A stretch of DNA of 64,000 nt from Escherichia coli (GTDB taxonomy: Bacteria > Pseudomonadota > Gammaproteobacteria > Enterobacterales > Enterobacteriaceae). How positions within the stretch are numbered: the first letter of the stretch is position 1; each line of letters begins with the position of its first letter. The DNA lies in NCBI RefSeq assembly GCF_003334815.1, contig NZ_QOWO01000008.1; one strand, given 5' to 3'. Both the position numbers and the translations under genes were made by a program. Of this stretch, positions 8,245-43,592 are shown piece by piece. The notes under the pieces were generated by a model. It saw only the letters and a list, made by a program, of their open reading frames with translations, was not told the origin of the DNA and did not search any database.

Positions 8245-8335
8245 GTTTTCTCTTTAGTGGGCGTCAAAAAAAACGCCGGATTAACCGGCGTCTGGCGTCT
8301 GACGACTGACTTAACGCTCAGGCTTTATTGTCCAC
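8245..8335 (-). ncRNA. sroD: Candidate SroD small RNA (fadD 3' region / rnd upstream)
   Basis: Recalled from the literature as lying between rnd and fadD; exact ends not verifiable here. Overlaps the fadD terminator hairpin. Confidence 0.25.
8266..8290 (-). terminator. Intrinsic terminator downstream of fadD
   Basis: Palindrome CGCCGGATTAACCGGCG with a U8 run on the minus strand (A8 at 8264-8271 on plus). Confidence 0.55.
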
Positions 8336-10003
8336 TTTGCCGCGCGCTTCGTCACGTAATTCTCGTCGCAAAATTTTTCCGACGTTAGATTTCGGTAACT
8401 CATCACGAAACTCCACCAGCTTCGGTACTTTGTATCCCGTGAGCTGACGGCGGCAAAAAGTCACCAGTGACTCTTCGGTAAGCGATGGATCTTTTTTCAC
8501 TACGAAGATTTTCACCGCTTCACCACTGGAGCCGGAAGGTACGCCAACAGCCGCGACTTCCTGTACGCCAGGATGCTGCATGACGACATCTTCAATCTCG
8601 TTGGGATAGACGTTAAAACCGGAAACCAGAATCATGTCTTTTTTACGATCGACAATGCGCAGGAATCCTTCTTCATCCATTACCGCGATGTCGCCGGTGT
8701 GTAACCAGCCATTTTTGATGATTTCATCGGTAGCATCGGGACGCTGCCAGTAACCCAGCATCACCTGCGGTCCTTTGACACAAAGCTCACCCGGTTGACC
8801 TGGTGGTACTTCATTATCATCATCATCCACCAGTTTGGCTTCCGTCGACGGCACCGGCAAACCGATGCTACCACTATGATAATCAATATCATATGGGTTA
8901 ACGCTGACCAGCGGCGCACACTCGGTAAGGCCATAGCCTTCCAGCAGATACTGTCCGGTCAGTTTCACCCAACGCTCTGCCACCACTTGCTGCACTGGCA
9001 TCCCACCGCCTGCGGAAAGATGCAGACTGGAGAAATCCAGCTGCTGGAACTCTTTATTGTTCAGCAACGCATTGAACAAGGTGTTAACGCCCGTGATAGC
9101 GGTAAACGGATATTTCGCTAACTCTTTTACCAACCCTGGAATATCGCGCGGGTTAGTGATAAGCAGGTTCTGCCCACCCAGTTCGATAAACAGCAGGCAG
9201 TTAATGGTCAGGGCAAAAATGTGATACAGCGGCAGCGCCGTCACCACCAGCTCTTTGCCCGGATGCAACAGCGGACCATAGGTCGCGTTAACCTGTTCCA
9301 GGTTCGCCAGCATATTGCGGTGAGTCAGCATCGCGCCTTTCGCCACACCAGTGGTGCCGCCGGTGTATTGCAGAAAAGCTAAATCTTCCGGCACCAGTTC
9401 GGGTTTGACGTACTGCATCCGGTAGCCGTTATGCAGTGCGCTACGAAATGAAATGGCATCTGGCAGATGGTATTTCGGCACCAAACGCTTGATGTATTTA
9501 ACAACGAAATTGACTACCGTGCCTTTTGCCGTAGATAGCTGATCGCCCATACGGGTCAGAATTACGTGCTGAACGGCGGTTTTATCAACCACTTTTTCCA
9601 GTGTGTGAGCAAAGTTAGACACGATAACAATCGCCGATGCGCCGCTATCGTTAAGCTGATGCTCAAGCTCACGCGGGGTATACAACGGGTTAACGTTTAC
9701 GACGATCATCCCGGCACGCAAAATGCCAAACAGCGCCACCGGATATTGCAATAAATTAGGCATCATCAACGCAACGCGATCGCCTTTCTTCAGCCCCAAC
9801 CCTTGTTGCAAATAAGCGGCAAACGCGCGACTGCGTTCTTCCAGCTTGCGGAAGGTCATTACCTCCCCCATATTCACAAACGCAGGTTGATCGGCGTAGC
9901 GCGCGACCGACTGCTCAAACATATCTACCAGAGATTGATAACGGTCAGGGTTGATCTCCGTCGGAACGTCCGCGGGATAACGGTTAAGCCAAACCTTCTT
10001 CAA
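8318..10003 (-). CDS. fadD: Long-chain fatty acid-CoA ligase
   Basis: AMP-binding enzyme; 561 aa from TTG at 10003 ([10 protein letters not shown]...), ORF-track 583 aa form is an upstream extension. Confidence 0.9.
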
Positions 10004-35887: not shown

Positions 35888-36385
35888 TTATCCTGCGACG
35901 CTCGCAAAGAATTTTTTGTAATCCGTCGTTGCAAGCACTTTTTCAAGCTGTGCCACAAGCTGACGTAAGCCTTGCTCGTCCTCGTCTGTAAAGCGACCGA
36001 AGACGGTACTATCGATGTCGAGAACACCAATAATCTGATTTTTCACCACCAGCGGCAGAACAATTTCAGAATTACTCGCCGCATCACAGGCAATATGCCC
36101 GTCAAACACATGAACATCCTCGATACGCTGCACTTGATTGCGGGCAACCGCAGTGCCGCACACGCCGCGCCCGACGGGTATCCGGACACAGGCAATTTTG
36201 CCCTGAAATGGTCCGAGTACCAGTGTATCGTCCTCAAGCAAATAAAAACCTGCCCAGTTTATGTCAGTGAGACGCTCATATAACAACGCACTGGTGTTCG
36301 CAAGCGTTGCCAGAAAACTGGTTTCTCCCGCCATCAGCGCGTTAAAGTCGCGATTTAAATCCGCGTAAAATTCTGTTTTGTTCAT
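35888..36385 (-). CDS. msrC: Free methionine-(R)-sulfoxide reductase (GAF domain)
   Basis: 165 aa from ATG 36385 (MNKTEFYADLNRDF...). Confidence 0.85.
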   Translation of the reverse strand: MNKTEFYADLNRDFNALMAGETSFLATLANTSALLYERLTDINWAGFYLLEDDTLVLGPFQGKIACVRIPVGRGVCGTAVARNQVQRIEDVHVFDGHIACDAASNSEIVLPLVVKNQIIGVLDIDSTVFGRFTDEDEQGLRQLVAQLEKVLATTDYKKFFASVAG

Positions 36386-36514
36386 TATATAATCACTTGG
36401 TTGTCTTACCTGGATCTGCCAGCCTATTAAAATAAGCATTAAATGCGTTAATGCTCAAGATCATTCCCATCATGGGTTAAGATTAATGTTAATTCTTATT
36501 ACATTTGGCACGTC

Positions 36515-37798
36515 ATGGCTCTTAACACACCACAAATTACGCCGACAAAAAAGATAACAGTGAGGGCAATCGGCGAGGAACTGCCGCGTGGTGATTACCA
36601 ACGTTGCCCGCAATGTGACATGCTGTTTAGCCTGCCCGAGATAAATTCTCATCAAAGTGCCTATTGTCCGCGCTGTCAGGCAAAAATTCGTGACGGGCGC
36701 GACTGGTCGCTAACGCGCCTGGCGGCAATGGCCTTCACCATGCTGTTGCTTATGCCGTTTGCCTGGGGCGAACCGCTGTTGCATATCTGGCTGTTAGGCA
36801 TTCGTATTGACGCCAACGTTATGCAAGGCATCTGGCAAATGACCAAACAGGGCGATGCGATAACGGGGTCGATGGTCTTTTTCTGCGTTATTGGTGCCCC
36901 GCTCATTCTGGTGACCTCCATAGCTTATTTATGGTTTGGTAACCGACTGGGAATGAATTTACGTCCGGTACTGCTGATGCTTGAGCGACTTAAAGAGTGG
37001 GTAATGCTCGATATCTACCTGGTCGGCATTGGCGTTGCTTCTATAAAGGTACAGGATTATGCCCATATCCAGGCTGGTGTCGGCTTGTTCTCTTTTGTGG
37101 CGTTGGTGATTTTAACGACGGTGACGTTGTCACATCTTAATGTCGAAGAACTGTGGGAGCGATTTTATCCGCAGCGCCCCGCTACGCGTAGGGACGAGAA
37201 ACTTCGTGTCTGTCTTGGGTGCCATTTTACCGGCTATCCAGATCAGCGTGGTCGCTGCCCGCGTTGCCATATCCCGCTACGCCTGCGTCGCCGTCATAGT
37301 CTGCAAAAATGCTGGGCGGCGCTGTTAGCGTCAATCGTTTTATTGTTACCTGCCAACCTGTTGCCTATTTCTATCATTTATCTGAACGGAGGACGGCAGG
37401 AAGATACAATTCTTTCCGGAATTATGTCGCTGGCAAGTAGCAACATTGCGGTTGCAGGAATCGTGTTTATCGCCAGTATTCTGGTACCGTTTACTAAAGT
37501 GATCGTCATGTTCACTTTACTGTTGAGCATTCATTTTAAATGCCAGCAAGGTTTACGCACACGTATTCTGTTACTGCGGATGGTGACCTGGATTGGTCGC
37601 TGGTCGATGCTCGACCTGTTTGTCATATCTTTAACCATGTCGCTGATTAATCGCGATCAGATCCTCGCTTTTACTATGGGACCGGCTGCGTTTTATTTCG
37701 GCGCAGCGGTAATTTTGACTATTCTTGCTGTGGAATGGCTGGACAGCCGCTTACTTTGGGATGCACATGAGTCAGGAAACGCCCGCTTCGACGACTGA
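36515..37798 (+). CDS. yebS: PqiA-like inner membrane protein (lipophilic envelope-spanning tunnel, LetA)
   Basis: 427 aa, duplicated PqiA-type membrane modules with Zn-ribbon-like CxxC pairs. Confidence 0.9.
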
Positions 37799-40400
37799 AG
37801 CGCAGATTAAAAATAAACGCCGTATCTCACCTTTCTGGCTGCTGCCGTTCATCGCGCTAATGATTGCCAGTTGGCTGATTTGGGACAGTTATCAGGACCG
37901 GGGTAATACCGTCACCATCGACTTTATGTCGGCGGATGGTATTGTTCCAGGCCGTACGCCTGTTCGTTATCAGGGCGTTGAAGTCGGAACAGTGCAGGAT
38001 ATCAGCCTCAGCGACGATCTTCGTAAGATTGAAGTCAAGGTCAGCATCAAGTCCGATATGAAAGATGCGCTGCGCGAAGAGACTCAGTTCTGGCTGGTGA
38101 CGCCAAAAGCATCGTTGGCAGGTGTCTCCGGGCTGGACGCCCTCGTCGGTGGGAACTATATCGGCATGATGCCGGGTAAAGGTAAAGAGCAGGATCACTT
38201 TGTCGCACTCGATACCCAACCGAAATATCGGCTGGACAATGGCGATCTGATGATCCACCTGCAAGCCCCCGATCTCGGTTCGCTGAACAGCGGTTCATTG
38301 GTCTATTTCCGCAAGATCCCGGTGGGAAAAGTCTACGACTATGCCATCAATCCCAACAAGCAAGGCGTGGTGATTGATGTCCTGATCGAGCGGCGTTTTA
38401 CCGATCTGGTGAAAAAAGGTAGCCGTTTCTGGAACGTTTCCGGCGTTGATGCCAACGTCAGTATCAGTGGCGCGAAGGTGAAACTGGAAAGCCTGGCGGC
38501 ACTGGTTAACGGTGCGATTGCCTTCGATTCACCAGAAGAGTCGAAACCTGCCGAGGCGGAAGATACCTTTGGTCTGTATGAAGATCTGGCCCACAGCCAG
38601 CGTGGCGTAATAATAAAACTGGAACTGCCGAGTGGGGCCGGATTAACCGCCGACTCGACGCCGTTAATGTATCAGGGGCTGGAAGTCGGACAGCTGACTA
38701 AACTGGATTTAAATCCTGGTGGTAAAGTCACAGGGGAAATGACCGTTGATCCCAGCGTCGTTACCCTGCTTCGTGAAAATACCCGCATCGAATTACGCAA
38801 CCCGAAATTATCCCTTAGCGATGCTAATCTCAGCGCCCTGCTGACCGGCAAAACCTTCGAGCTGGTGCCCGGCGATGGCGAGCCACGCAAAGAGTTCGTT
38901 GTTGTGCCAGGCGAAAAAGCACTGCTGCATGAACCTGATGTTCTGACGCTGACCCTGACCGCGCCGGAAAGTTACGGTATTGATGCGGGTCAGCCGCTCA
39001 TTCTTCACGGCGTGCAGGTAGGCCAGGTTATCGATCGTAAACTCACCAGCAAAGGCGTCACCTTTACCGTCGCCATCGAGCCTCAGCATCGCGAACTGGT
39101 AAAAGGCGATAGCAAATTTGTCGTCAACAGCCGTGTCGATGTGAAGGTGGGGCTGGATGGCGTTGAGTTTCTCGGTGCCAGCGCCTCAGAATGGATCAAT
39201 GGCGGGATACGTATTCTGCCGGGCGATAAAGGTGAGATGAAAGCCAGCTATCCACTGTATGCCAATTTGGAAAAAGCGCTGGAGAACAGCCTTAGCGATT
39301 TACCCACCACAACCGTGAGTTTGAGTGCAGAGACGCTGCCGGATGTGCAGGTAGGATCGGTAGTGCTGTACCGTAAATTTGAAGTTGGTGAAGTGATTAC
39401 CGTGCGTCCGCGAGCTAACGCGTTTGATATCGATCTGCATATTAAGCCGGAGTATCGCAACCTTCTGACCAGCAATAGCGTGTTCTGGGCAGAAGGCGGG
39501 GCGAAAGTTCAGCTGAATGGTAGTGGTCTGACCGTACAGGCATCCCCGCTCTCCAGAGCATTAAAGGGAGCCATTAGCTTCGACAACCTCAGCGGTGCCA
39601 GCGCCAGTCAGCGTAAAGGCGATAAGCGTATTCTGTATGCTTCCGAAACAGCGGCCCGTGCGGTTGGCGGGCAGATTACGCTTCACGCTTTCGATGCCGG
39701 AAAACTGGCGGTCGGGATGCCAATTCGCTATCTCGGTATTGATATCGGGCAAATCCAGACGCTGGATCTGATTACCGCACGCAATGAAGTACAGGCAAAG
39801 GCGGTACTTTACCCGGAATATGTCCAGACCTTTGCTCGCGGTGGTACGCGCTTCTCAGTGGTCACACCGCAAATTTCGGCAGCTGGCGTTGAGCATCTTG
39901 ATACTATCCTCCAGCCGTATATCAACGTCGAACCAGGCCGGGGCAATCCTCGCCGCGACTTTGAATTACAAGAGGCCACCATTACTGATTCGCGTTACCT
40001 GGATGGCTTAAGCATTATTGTTGAAGCGCCGGAAGCCGGTTCGTTAGGCATCGGTACGCCTGTGCTGTTCCGTGGTCTGGAAGTCGGTACGGTTACAGGA
40101 ATGACGCTGGGGACATTGTCAGATCGCGTGATGATTGCGATGCGCATCAGTAAACGCTATCAACACCTGGTGCGTAACAATTCCGTCTTCTGGTTGGCAT
40201 CGGGTTACAGTCTGGACTTTGGTCTGACGGGCGGCGTAGTGAAAACCGGCACCTTTAACCAGTTTATCCGTGGCGGCATCGCCTTCGCCACGCCTCCGGG
40301 TACGCCACTGGCACCGAAAGCCCAGGAAGGCAAACACTTCCTGTTGCAGGAAAGTGAACCGAAAGAGTGGCGTGAATGGGGAACTGCGCTTCCCAAATAA
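37767..40400 (+). CDS. yebT: Multi-MCE-domain periplasm-spanning protein (LetB)
   Basis: 877 aa from ATG 37767; repeated MCE domains; overlaps yebS 3' end by 32 nt. Confidence 0.9.
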
Positions 40401-40479
40401 TGCCCACTGCTCCGGCGTGCCTGCGCCGGAGCGTTTATGCTAAACTGCGCGCCTGTTTTTTTGCCAGTGGTACATGCTC

Positions 40480-41919
40480 GTGGCCCAACACACCGTTTAT
40501 TTCCCGGACGCCTTTCTGACACAAATGCGCGAAGCGATGCCTTCGACGCTCTCATTTGATGATTTTCTTGCCGCCTGTCAGCGCCCGTTGCGCCGCAGCA
40601 TTCGCGTTAATACGCTGAAAATCTCCGTTGCTGATTTCCTGCAATTAACCGCTCCTTATGGCTGGACGCTTACGCCAATTCCGTGGTGTGAAGAAGGTTT
40701 CTGGATTGAACGCGACAATGAAGATGCATTGCCATTGGGTAGTACCGCCGAGCATTTAAGTGGCCTGTTTTATATTCAGGAAGCCAGTTCAATGTTGCCT
40801 GTTGCCGCCTTGTTTGCTGACGGTAATGCACCACAGCGGGTGATGGATGTCGCTGCCGCGCCTGGCTCCAAAACGACGCAAATTTCCGCGCGGATGAATA
40901 ACGAAGGGGCAATCCTTGCCAATGAGTTTTCCGCCAGTCGGGTAAAAGTGTTACATGCCAATATCAGCCGCTGTGGTATCAGTAATGTTGCGCTCACACA
41001 TTTTGATGGCCGCGTGTTTGGTGCGGCAGTGCCAGAAATGTTCGATGCCATTTTGCTGGACGCTCCCTGCTCTGGCGAAGGCGTGGTGCGTAAAGATCCC
41101 GATGCGCTAAAAAACTGGTCACCAGAAAGCAATCAGGAAATCGCAGCTACACAACGGGAGCTTATCGACAGCGCCTTTCATGCATTACGTCCTGGTGGTA
41201 CGCTGGTTTACTCGACCTGTACCTTAAACCAGGAAGAAAACGAAGCCGTTTGCCTGTGGCTGAAAGAGACTTACCCCGACGCAGTAGAGTTTTTACCACT
41301 TGGCGATCTCTTCCCTGGTGCAAACAAAGCGCTGACCGAAGAAGGCTTTTTGCATGTTTTCCCACAAATTTACGACTGCGAAGGCTTCTTCGTTGCTCGT
41401 CTGCGTAAAACTCAGGCGATTCCCGCCTTACCCGCCCCCAAATACAAAGTCGGTAATTTTCCGTTCAGCCCGGTGAAAGATCGCGAAGCTGGACAAATTC
41501 GTCAGGCGGCTACAGGTGTTGGCTTAAACTGGGATGAAAACCTGCGCCTCTGGCAGCGTGACAAAGAACTGTGGTTGTTCCCGGTGGGCATTGAAGCCCT
41601 GATCGGTAAAGTCCGATTTTCTCGGTTGGGGATTAAACTTGCCGAGACGCACAACAAAGGTTATCGCTGGCAGCATGAAGCGGTTATTGCTCTTGCCTCA
41701 CCCGATAATATGAATGCATTCGAGCTGACACCGCAGGAAGCGGAGGAGTGGTATCGCGGGCGCGATGTTTACCCGCAAGCCGCGCCAGTGGCGGATGATG
41801 TATTGGTTACTTTCCAGCATCAACCGATTGGTTTAGCCAAACGGATTGGTTCGCGATTGAAAAACAGCTATCCGCGTGAACTGGTGCGCGATGGGAAACT
41901 TTTTACCGGTAACGCCTGA
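40480..41919 (+). CDS. rsmF: 16S rRNA m5C1407 methyltransferase
   Basis: 479 aa from GTG 40480; NOL1/NOP2/Sun-family SAM methyltransferase motifs. Confidence 0.88.
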
Positions 41920-43299: not shown

Positions 43300-43592
43300 G
43301 AGTGTGTGTTATGGTTGACTATAAAGTCAGCGAAGGAAATGCTTCTGGCTTTTAACAGATAAAAAGAGACCGAACACGATTCCTGTATTCGGTCCAGGGA
43401 AATGGCTCTTGGGAGAGAGCCGTGCGCTAAAAGTTGGCATTAATGCAGGCTTAGTTGCCTTGCCCTTTAAGAATAGATGACGACGCCAGGTTTTCCAGTT
43501 TGCGTGCAAAATGGTCAATAAAAAGCGTGGTGGTCATCAGCTGAAATGTTAAAAACCGCCCGTTCTGGTGAAAGAACTGAGGCGGTTTTTTT
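43300..43592 (+). ncRNA. ryeA: RyeA/SraC small RNA, antisense to SdsR (approximate 5' end)
   Basis: Known sRNA in the pphA-yebY spacer; 3' end set by the intrinsic terminator at 43553-43596. Confidence 0.4.
43357..43460 (-). ncRNA. sdsR: SdsR (RyeB) sigma-S-dependent small RNA
   Basis: Minus strand reads GCAAGGCAACUAAGCCUGCAUUAAUGCCAACUUUUAGCGCACGGCUCUCUCCCAAGAGCC...GACCGAAUACAGGAAUCGUGUUCGGUCUCUUUUU, matching recalled SdsR with its terminator hairpin; sigma-S-like -10 (TATTCT) just upstream. Confidence 0.65.

Follow-up and report, generated by a model that had tools for sequence, protein, structure and literature searches.

The letAB locus and its products

The segment from 36515 to 40400 of the window (the whole 64,000-nucleotide stretch of the Escherichia coli contig NZ_QOWO01000008.1 considered in the analysis) is the letAB (yebST) operon of E. 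coli K-12, an annotated gene pair and not a chance pattern. The DNA is 100% identical to that of E. coli K-12 MG1655 across 36400-40450, and the RefSeq annotation of yebS and yebT has the same coordinates as the open reading frames 36515..37798 and 37767..40400. The two genes and the domains assigned to their products are as follows.

36515..37798, plus strand: letA (yebS) coding sequence, 427 aa, inner-membrane LetA transporter subunit with two LetA/PqiA modules (ATG reading frame; RefSeq)
36584..36709, plus strand: LetA N-terminal zinc-ribbon domain, residues 24-65, CxxC at C31/C34 and C51/C54 (translation; weak zinc-ribbon Pfam matches)
36710..37165, plus strand: first PqiA domain (transmembrane domain N, residues 66-217; Pfam PF04403, E = 1.3e-38)
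37301..37768, plus strand: second PqiA domain (transmembrane domain C, residues 263-418; Pfam PF04403, E = 8.4e-43)
37767..40400, plus strand: letB (yebT) coding sequence, 877 aa, MCE tunnel protein (ATG within the stop-to-stop frame ending at 40400; RefSeq)
37830..37895, plus strand: LetB N-terminal transmembrane anchor helix, about residues 22-43 (hydrophobic stretch in the translation)
37899..38177, plus strand: MCE domain 1, residues 45-137 (Pfam MlaD PF02470, E = 4.7e-19)
38253..38426, plus strand: MCE domain 2, residues 163-220 (Pfam MlaD, E = 6.9e-08)
38604..38825, plus strand: MCE domain 3, residues 280-353 (Pfam MlaD, E = 9.2e-10)
38946..39131, plus strand: MCE domain 4, residues 394-455 (Pfam MlaD, E = 4.8e-07)
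39306..39533, plus strand: MCE domain 5, residues 514-589 (Pfam MlaD, E = 9e-05)
39672..39938, plus strand: MCE domain 6, residues 636-724 (Pfam MlaD, E = 2.3e-12)
40005..40190, plus strand: MCE domain 7, residues 747-808 (Pfam MlaD, E = 9.7e-11)

The initial annotation had described the locus as a yebS-yebT (LetAB) envelope lipid-transport pair, in which a PqiA-like membrane protein precedes an 877 aa protein with about seven tandem MCE domains. The identity with MG1655, the RefSeq annotation and matches to solved structures bear out this description, and the Pfam search resolves it into two PqiA domains and seven MlaD/MCE domains.

LetA aligns over its full length (residues 1-427) with PDB 9n8w_A (E = 2.1e-291) and scores 704.9 bits against TIGR00155, the PqiA/YebS family, for which the cutoff is 260.35. 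In the translation a four-cysteine motif precedes each of the transmembrane domains: at residues 31-54 it reads CPQC...CPRC, and in the linker that joins the PqiA domains it reads CLGC...CPRC; the limits of the zinc ribbon and the binding of zinc are taken from PMC13017536. The end of the second PqiA domain coincides with the start codon of letB, so that the overlap of the two genes begins at the last residue of that domain. A letA gene is told from pqiA by an adjoining downstream gene of the LetB type with six to eight MCE domains (PMC13017536), and the gene following letA in the window has seven such domains in Pfam.

LetB is matched over its whole length (residues 1-877) by PDB 9n8w_B and from residue 46 to 877 by 6v0c_A, both with an E-value of 0. 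Six N-terminal helices of LetB anchor the complex (PMC13017536). The MCE domains have been called by the MlaD family of Pfam (PF02470) with E-values ranging from 4.7e-19 to 9e-05. An assignment of LetB as PqiB (NF008070 equivalog) is rejected, as the score of 475.9 bits lies below the cutoff of 525 and the protein has seven MCE domains and not three; LetB is a paralogue of PqiB.

The E. coli PqiABC system resembles LetAB in that the gene of a multi-MCE protein is directly preceded by that of a PqiA-family membrane protein containing two PqiA modules, and the envelope-integrity phenotypes of the two systems overlap. It differs in that PqiB has three MCE domains and a needle and is partnered by the lipoprotein PqiC, in the equivalog scores (LetA reaches 212 against a PqiA cutoff of 562, and LetB likewise remains under the PqiB cutoff), and in the spacing of the genes, which is +4 nt for pqiA-pqiB and -32 for letA-letB. 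In MlaFEDB, too, MCE domains assemble into hexameric rings through which phospholipid passes (PMC13017536), but MlaD has a single MCE domain and an ABC transporter drives the system, whereas LetAB is devoid of an ABC component and LetA has a distinct tetraspanin-like fold (PMC13017536). With respect to E. coli K-12 LetAB (PDB 9n8w/9n8x and 6v0c-6v0j; Isom et al. 2020, Santarossa et al. 2026) no difference is seen, the DNA, proteins, coordinates and overlap all being identical.

All but one of 5426 complete E. coli genomes carry the locus. Identity of at least 99% is reached by the 101-nt letA-letB junction in 5423 of these 5425 genomes, and by the whole 4-kb region in only 864.

The overlap and the start of letB

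The shared stretch of 32 nt noticed in the initial annotation is confirmed by the reading frames, and a 32-bp letA-letB overlap has been explicitly given by Santarossa et al. 2026 (Nature; PMC13017536). The features at the junction and at the end of the operon are the following.

37758..37761, plus strand: weak Shine-Dalgarno-like GGGA, 5 nt ahead of the letB ATG and inside the conserved LetA Trp-Asp codons (TGGGAY); best anti-Shine-Dalgarno duplex -4.0 kcal/mol
37767..37798, plus strand: 32-nt dual-coding overlap, encoding residues 418-427 and the stop of LetA in one frame, and residues 1-10 of LetB plus bases 1 and 2 of codon 11 in the other (reading frames; RefSeq; PMC13017536)
40408..40433, plus strand: GC-rich hairpin directly 3' of the letB stop (terminator-like scan: a stem of 11 pairs, of which 8 are G-C, with a poor T tract)

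The most likely start of letB is the ATG at 37767, and an equivalent ATG is present in all 21 of the sampled Enterobacterales loci. An ATG at 37761, which would give a protein of 879 aa beginning M-H-M, is rejected since 5 of the 21 loci lack it (THM, TLM, ILM) and it overlaps the GGGA; a TTG at 37725 (891 aa) is rejected for want of a Shine-Dalgarno sequence. Between 37767 and the transmembrane helix of LetB no further ATG, GTG or TTG has been found. The GGGA probably acts as the ribosome-binding site of letB, and the TGGGA containing it is invariant in 22 Enterobacterales sequences. A site as weak as this (-4.0 kcal/mol) would alone favour some help from upstream translation.

No structure hiding this site is predicted: the single-sequence fold is no more stable than shuffled sequences (z = -0.58), a prediction with which weak structures are compatible, and in a consensus folded from 20 Enterobacterales sequences the Shine-Dalgarno sequence and ATG of letB are unpaired, with zero compensatory pairs. 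The consensus fold has only two short upstream stems, one of 4 bp and the other an essentially invariant hairpin of 5 bp within the codons for W-L-D-S-R. Neither has compensatory changes, and they are therefore rejected as evidence for coupling of the unfolding type.

The scan of 36200-40700 for promoters gave nothing exceeding the expectation from shuffling, and an internal letB promoter is therefore not proposed. The hairpin at 40408..40433 is included in the predicted fold of 40395-40475 (z = -1.84) and is possibly a weak terminator or a 3'-end stabiliser of the letAB transcript.

The sequence of the overlap is ATGAGTCAGGAAACGCCCGCTTCGACGACTGA, with the letB frame at +1 relative to letA. 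Its length is 32 nt in 19 of the 21 sampled loci and 29 nt in the other two, which have a one-codon deletion. The position of the LetA stop is kept in 21 of 21, with the codon varying among TGA, TAG and TAA. Within the overlap the pairwise identity lies at 0.78-0.84 whichever of the three codon phases is taken, as against 0.48-0.55 at the third positions of the flanks; the relaxation usual for third codon positions is thus lost, which shows that both frames are under selection, and hence translated, in this stretch. The tails carry conserved motifs across Enterobacterales, WDAH..GNA.[FY].D in LetA and M.QETP in LetB. The invariant CAGGAAAC inside the overlap is explained by the conserved Gly-Asn of LetA together with Gln-Glu-Thr of LetB; as a Shine-Dalgarno sequence for another start it is rejected, no start codon lying downstream at a usable spacing. 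No cryo-EM density was seen for LetA residues 419-427, residues 1-13 of LetB are described as absent and were left out of the models (PMC13017536), and the overlap coincides with these two disordered cytoplasmic tails, the C-terminal one of LetA and the N-terminal one of LetB.

The locus, the LetAB structure and the 32-bp overlap are already published, and their re-finding therefore contributes nothing new. The conservation of the start and stop across Enterobacterales and the two-frame selection within the overlap are new with respect to the published work. These comparative additions are small; they comprise support for the annotated letB start, selection on both frames, and the placing of the overlap on two disordered tails.

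Interpretation of the overlap

The cryo-EM complex (PDB 9n8w) has a stoichiometry of 1 LetA to 6 LetB, and the same study describes the seven MCE rings, the opening of ring 1 and a model of lipid loading (PMC13017536). In this complex a single inner-membrane LetA, each of its two modules formed by a zinc ribbon and then a transmembrane domain, lies beneath the LetB hexamer, whose seven MCE domains stack as seven rings to give a hydrophobic tunnel of about 225 Å spanning the periplasm. MCE ring 1 is opened by LetA, which is proposed to supply the tunnel with phospholipids drawn from the inner membrane. The overlap is a conserved dual-coding segment carried on the disordered tails of LetA and LetB; initiation of letB would be largely independent, presumably at the weak GGGA within the Trp-Asp codons of LetA, and translation of letA would add to it modestly at most. 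That the locus is a letAB operon with a conserved dual-coding overlap, in which letB initiates largely independently at 37767, is considered highly probable. With 1 LetA to 6 LetB, the initiations needed on letB exceed several-fold those that letA could pass on. In the mutational scan of LetA the wild-type background was a plasmid with the genes refactored as non-overlapping frames, and selection was on function (PMC13017536). The refactored construct is plasmid-borne, and a quantitative effect of the native overlap is possible.

The initial annotation had also taken the overlap to suggest translational coupling. This inference is rather weak, and the evidence leans against coupling of the classical kind. 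Coupling is most efficient at spacings of -4 to +3 nt, longer overlaps reduce it more than gaps of equal length, and one systematic study observed none at -25 nt (PMC12548453); a separation of about 20 nt nearly eliminated termination-reinitiation in the work of Huber et al. 2023 (PMC10666635). The letA-letB spacing of -32 nt is outside the range of about -4 to +3 in which reporter studies see efficient termination-reinitiation (PMC12548453, PMC10666635), and the hidden ribosome-binding site that characterises coupling by RNA unfolding is not seen in the predicted folds at letB. The literature search found no paper linking yebT with ribosome profiling and none joining 'translational coupling' with yebS or yebT. 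The overlap alone is indicated to be insufficient ground for assuming translational coupling.

Were the overlap a true coupling device, ribosomes terminating letA at 37798 would scan about 30 nt back to start again at 37767, or would hold the ribosome-binding site of letB open as they pass, and synthesis of LetB would depend on that of LetA. The conservation of the -32 geometry across the 21 sampled loci (29 nt in two) and the weakness of the letB Shine-Dalgarno sequence agree with such a device, as does the enrichment of overlapping pairs among subunits of heteromeric complexes (PMC10666635), but the steep drop in efficiency with growing overlap and the near loss of termination-reinitiation described above argue against it, and a hand-over of 1:1 cannot yield a 1:6 stoichiometry (PMC13017536). 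The refactored plasmid without the overlap, moreover, allowed functional selection (PMC13017536). Overlaps predominate at junctions of PqiA-like and MCE genes (71 of 89, 50 of them obligatory, among the matches listed), a further point for coupling. These junctions come from a scan of genome contigs with the GRWSM motif of the second PqiA domain, a choice that biases the sample, and start codons outside Enterobacterales were chosen heuristically, so that the statistics are descriptive and form no census. The +4 nt spacing of pqiA-pqiB and the gaps of 24-55 nt ahead of the LetB-like genes of Aeromonas, among the matches listed, imply that the family can do without the -32 geometry, which again speaks against a coupling device. 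The coat-lysis pairs of RNA phages (fr at -38 nt, MS2 at -50 nt) offer the closest parallel, their downstream start lying tens of nucleotides ahead of the upstream stop (PMC12548453); there, in contrast, coupling is shown by experiment and MS2 needs an inhibitory RNA structure, whereas near the letB start such a structure is neither predicted nor conserved. On balance a coupling device is unlikely.

The Shine-Dalgarno sequence and start of letB lie entirely within letA, and ribosomes on the letA tail could instead occlude them, tuning the LetA:LetB ratio down or making letB initiation sensitive to letA traffic. The Shine-Dalgarno sequence of letA itself is very weak (-1.5 kcal/mol), from which low ribosome traffic on letA would follow; low traffic is compatible with an output ratio of 1:6, but it would also make occlusion negligible, and as the argument is purely inferential we hold this kind of interference to be very improbable.

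It is an even chance that the overlap has no function in expression at all, being a historical accident in which the stop or the start came by drift to lie in two tails free of constraint and the arrangement was then frozen, because any change alters two proteins simultaneously. This possibility is compatible with the favoured interpretation given above and is partly contained in it. The disorder of both tails in the structure and the success of the refactored non-overlapping construct (PMC13017536) are in keeping with such an origin, as are the overlap lengths in the family, which among the matches listed vary from 4 to 35 nt, with gaps in some members. The tails are, however, fairly well conserved in Enterobacterales, suggesting constraint beyond drift, for which dual coding alone could account.

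That the LetA stop is held so strictly in place throughout an order may be due to selection on the geometry itself, and not on the two peptides alone. Taken together with a Shine-Dalgarno sequence set in invariant Trp-Asp codons, where the last transmembrane domain of LetA ends, the conserved -32 nt geometry might constitute a dedicated device setting the 1:6 ratio of LetA to LetB synthesis, either through backward re-initiation over a long distance, of the kind known from the coat-lysis pairs of RNA phages, or through occlusion by letA ribosomes. We regard such a device as quite unlikely; if true, it would be a rare cellular case of expression control by a long overlap.

Identity and function of the letAB locus

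Two genes that overlap on the plus strand have been identified from the ORF table and the sequence:

36515-37798, plus strand, letA (yebS) ORF, ATG start, 427 aa
37767-40400, plus strand, letB (yebT) ORF, ATG start at 37767, 877 aa

They have in common a stretch of 32 nt (37767-37798), in which letB is read in the +1 frame with respect to letA. The ORF table and the sequence agree with every number of the initial annotation, namely the coordinates, the 877 aa and the 32-nt overlap, and yebS and yebT have exactly the same coordinates in RefSeq, where htpX, prc, proQ and msrC are the upstream and rsmF, yebV, yebW and pphA the downstream neighbours. The proposed PqiA-like and tandem-MCE character of the products is borne out by Pfam searches, which assign two PqiA domains to the first protein and seven MlaD/MCE domains to the second. 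The identification of the pair as LetAB is right, as seen from the RefSeq names, these domains and full-length matches of LetA to chain A and LetB to chain B of the LetAB cryo-EM entries 9n8w/9n8x; further structure matches of LetB are 6v0c-6v0j, 6kz3/6kz4, 7see and 6vci. The first protein belongs to the PqiA/YebS family of NCBIfam with a score well over the cutoff, and both proteins score under the PqiA and PqiB equivalog cutoffs, which makes them Pqi paralogues and not Pqi itself. The region 36400-40450 is 100% identical to that of E. coli K-12 MG1655 and many further strains, and of 5426 complete E. coli genomes 5425 contain it; the letAB feature is already known, its 32-bp overlap included (PMC13017536). 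One genome of this collection has no letAB match; letAB occurs twice in one record, and a single copy was seen on a plasmid record.

The operon structure of yebS-yebT has been predicted and YebT localised to the inner membrane (Isom et al. 2017, PMC5561183). Deletion of letA or of letB gives the same sensitivity to cholate and LSB in a ΔpqiAB background, and LetB is pulled down by LetA (Santarossa et al. 2026, PMC13017536). In the complex six LetB are situated above one LetA; the seven MCE domains of each LetB form seven stacked rings enclosing a tunnel about 225 Å long, the first ring of which is opened by LetA binding (PMC13017536). LetA comprises two modules, each with a zinc ribbon and a transmembrane domain of tetraspanin-like fold, and those authors propose that phospholipid passes from the inner membrane through the LetA cleft, groove and pocket to the tunnel, with direction and energy coupling left open (PMC13017536).

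Comparative anatomy of the letA/letB junction

The comparative anatomy of this junction is new in the current analysis. Species-representative genomes were scanned once for the GRWSM motif of LetA, written as a degenerate pattern, giving at least 120 loci. The 21 Enterobacterales loci among the matches listed come from Escherichia albertii, Enterobacter, Kluyvera, Pseudocitrobacter, Pseudescherichia, Mangrovibacter, Pantoea, Erwinia, Rosenbergiella, Rahnella, Serratia, Acerihabitans and MAGs. All 21 keep an ATG at the place of 37767, and the adjoining ATG 37761 is replaced in 5, which speaks against it as the letB start. No other ATG, GTG or TTG was found between 37767 and the transmembrane helix. 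It follows that 37767 is the start that is conserved and that the two genes necessarily overlap. The position of the LetA stop is constant in these loci, the codon being TGA, TAG or TAA, and the overlap measures 32 nt in 19 of the 21 and 29 nt in the other two, which have a one-codon deletion.

Third positions are relaxed in the flanks, with a pairwise nucleotide identity of 0.55 in the letA-only and 0.48 in the letB-only part, and the identity within the overlap is 0.78-0.84 at all three codon phases. Evenness of this kind marks a sequence on which selection acts in both frames. Of 5425 E. coli genomes, 5423 have a 101-nt junction of 99% identity or more, and only 864 reach this level over the whole 4-kb region. 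The second PqiA domain (Pfam) ends with residue 418, and this is where the overlap begins; the shared stretch codes for residues 419-427 of LetA and the N-terminal residues of LetB. These residues are unresolved or omitted in structural work (PMC13017536), so the common DNA encodes two disordered cytoplasmic tails.

Among the matches listed, 89 usable PqiA-like/MCE junctions of diverse Proteobacteria, a sample biased by the search motif, were compared. With the ATG nearest upstream of the transmembrane helix taken as a heuristic start, 71 of the 89 overlap, and 50 overlap with any start; the sizes seen are 4, 8, 11, 14, 17, 20, 23, 26, 29, 32 and 35 nt, with the +1 frame in 59 of the 71 (loci L002-L121 of the scan). 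The LetB-like genes of Aeromonas listed there follow gaps of 24-55 nt. In the same listed matches, overlaps of 8 nt are common in Vibrio and Burkholderiaceae, and Shewanella overlaps measure 14 or 23 nt. In these matches the Trp-Asp codons (TGGGAY) conserved at the C-terminal end of the PqiA-like proteins read xG(M/T/I) in the MCE-gene frame. In the pqiABC locus of E. coli K-12 (L122:11683-14581), a gap of 4 nt separates pqiA from pqiB and an overlap of 4 nt joins pqiB to pqiC, in contrast to 32 nt at letA-letB, so the long overlap is specific to letAB. Tight packing is typical of the family and the 32-nt geometry specific to Enterobacterales LetAB, as judged from this motif-biased sample.

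Initiation of letB translation

The initial annotation had suggested that the overlap couples translation of the two genes, a proposal that is unproven and, on the present evidence, somewhat disfavoured. Coupling from letA to letB would fit the conserved overlap geometry in the Enterobacterales loci among the matches listed and the weak putative letB Shine-Dalgarno-like element (GGGA, 37758-37761, -4.0 kcal/mol), which is embedded in the invariant LetA Trp-Asp codons; phage coat-lysis pairs are coupled even at -38 and -50 nt (PMC12548453). However, efficiency in reporter studies peaks at -4 to +3 nt and drops more steeply with growing overlap than with growing gap, and one systematic series gave no coupling at -25 nt (PMC12548453); termination-reinitiation is nearly abolished by about 20 nt (Huber et al. 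2023). RNA structure likewise speaks against coupling: the fold of the 151-nt junction is no better than its shuffles (z = -0.58), and in a consensus fold of 20 Enterobacterales sequences the putative element and the ATG are unpaired, with no compensatory pairs. The 1:6 stoichiometry also requires several-fold more initiations at letB than at letA.

A plasmid construct with letA and letB refactored as non-overlapping frames works, and the deep mutational scan selecting for LetA function was run in this background (PMC13017536); plasmid-borne LetAB can hence function in its absence, which is a further point against coupling. Coupling may make a minor contribution, and translational interference at the overlap possibly another. 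In our reading, letB would initiate largely independently of letA translation, and the overlap would have been first tolerated and then frozen, because it lies on two disordered tails.

Other elements of the window

A GC-rich hairpin of 11 bp (40408-40433, plus strand) lies 8 nt past the letB stop. Its T tract is poor and the fold z is -1.84, and it could be a weak terminator or 3'-end stabiliser of letAB; a run of seven T is situated further along the 79-nt spacer between letB and rsmF. Gene starts differ between longest ORFs and RefSeq for rsmF (ATG 40474 against 40480), prc (35121; a TTG-extended ORF of 698 aa against a CDS of 2049 nt) and msrC (36439; 183 aa against a CDS of 498 nt, with the end at 36385).

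Matches at Rfam gathering level have been identified for the antisense sRNA pair SraC/RyeA (43357-43501, plus strand, 175 bits) and SdsR/RyeB (43361-43460, minus strand, 114 bits), at their expected E. coli K-12 place between pphA and yebY. The Rfam model of the cspA thermoregulator matches 27408-27868 (minus strand, 135 bits), covering cspC (27483-27692, CspC protein) and an upstream yobF-like ORF of 47 aa (27705-27848), and the match hence represents a paralogue mRNA and not cspA itself. The sRNA sroD is matched at 8267-8359 (minus strand, 105 bits, Rfam).
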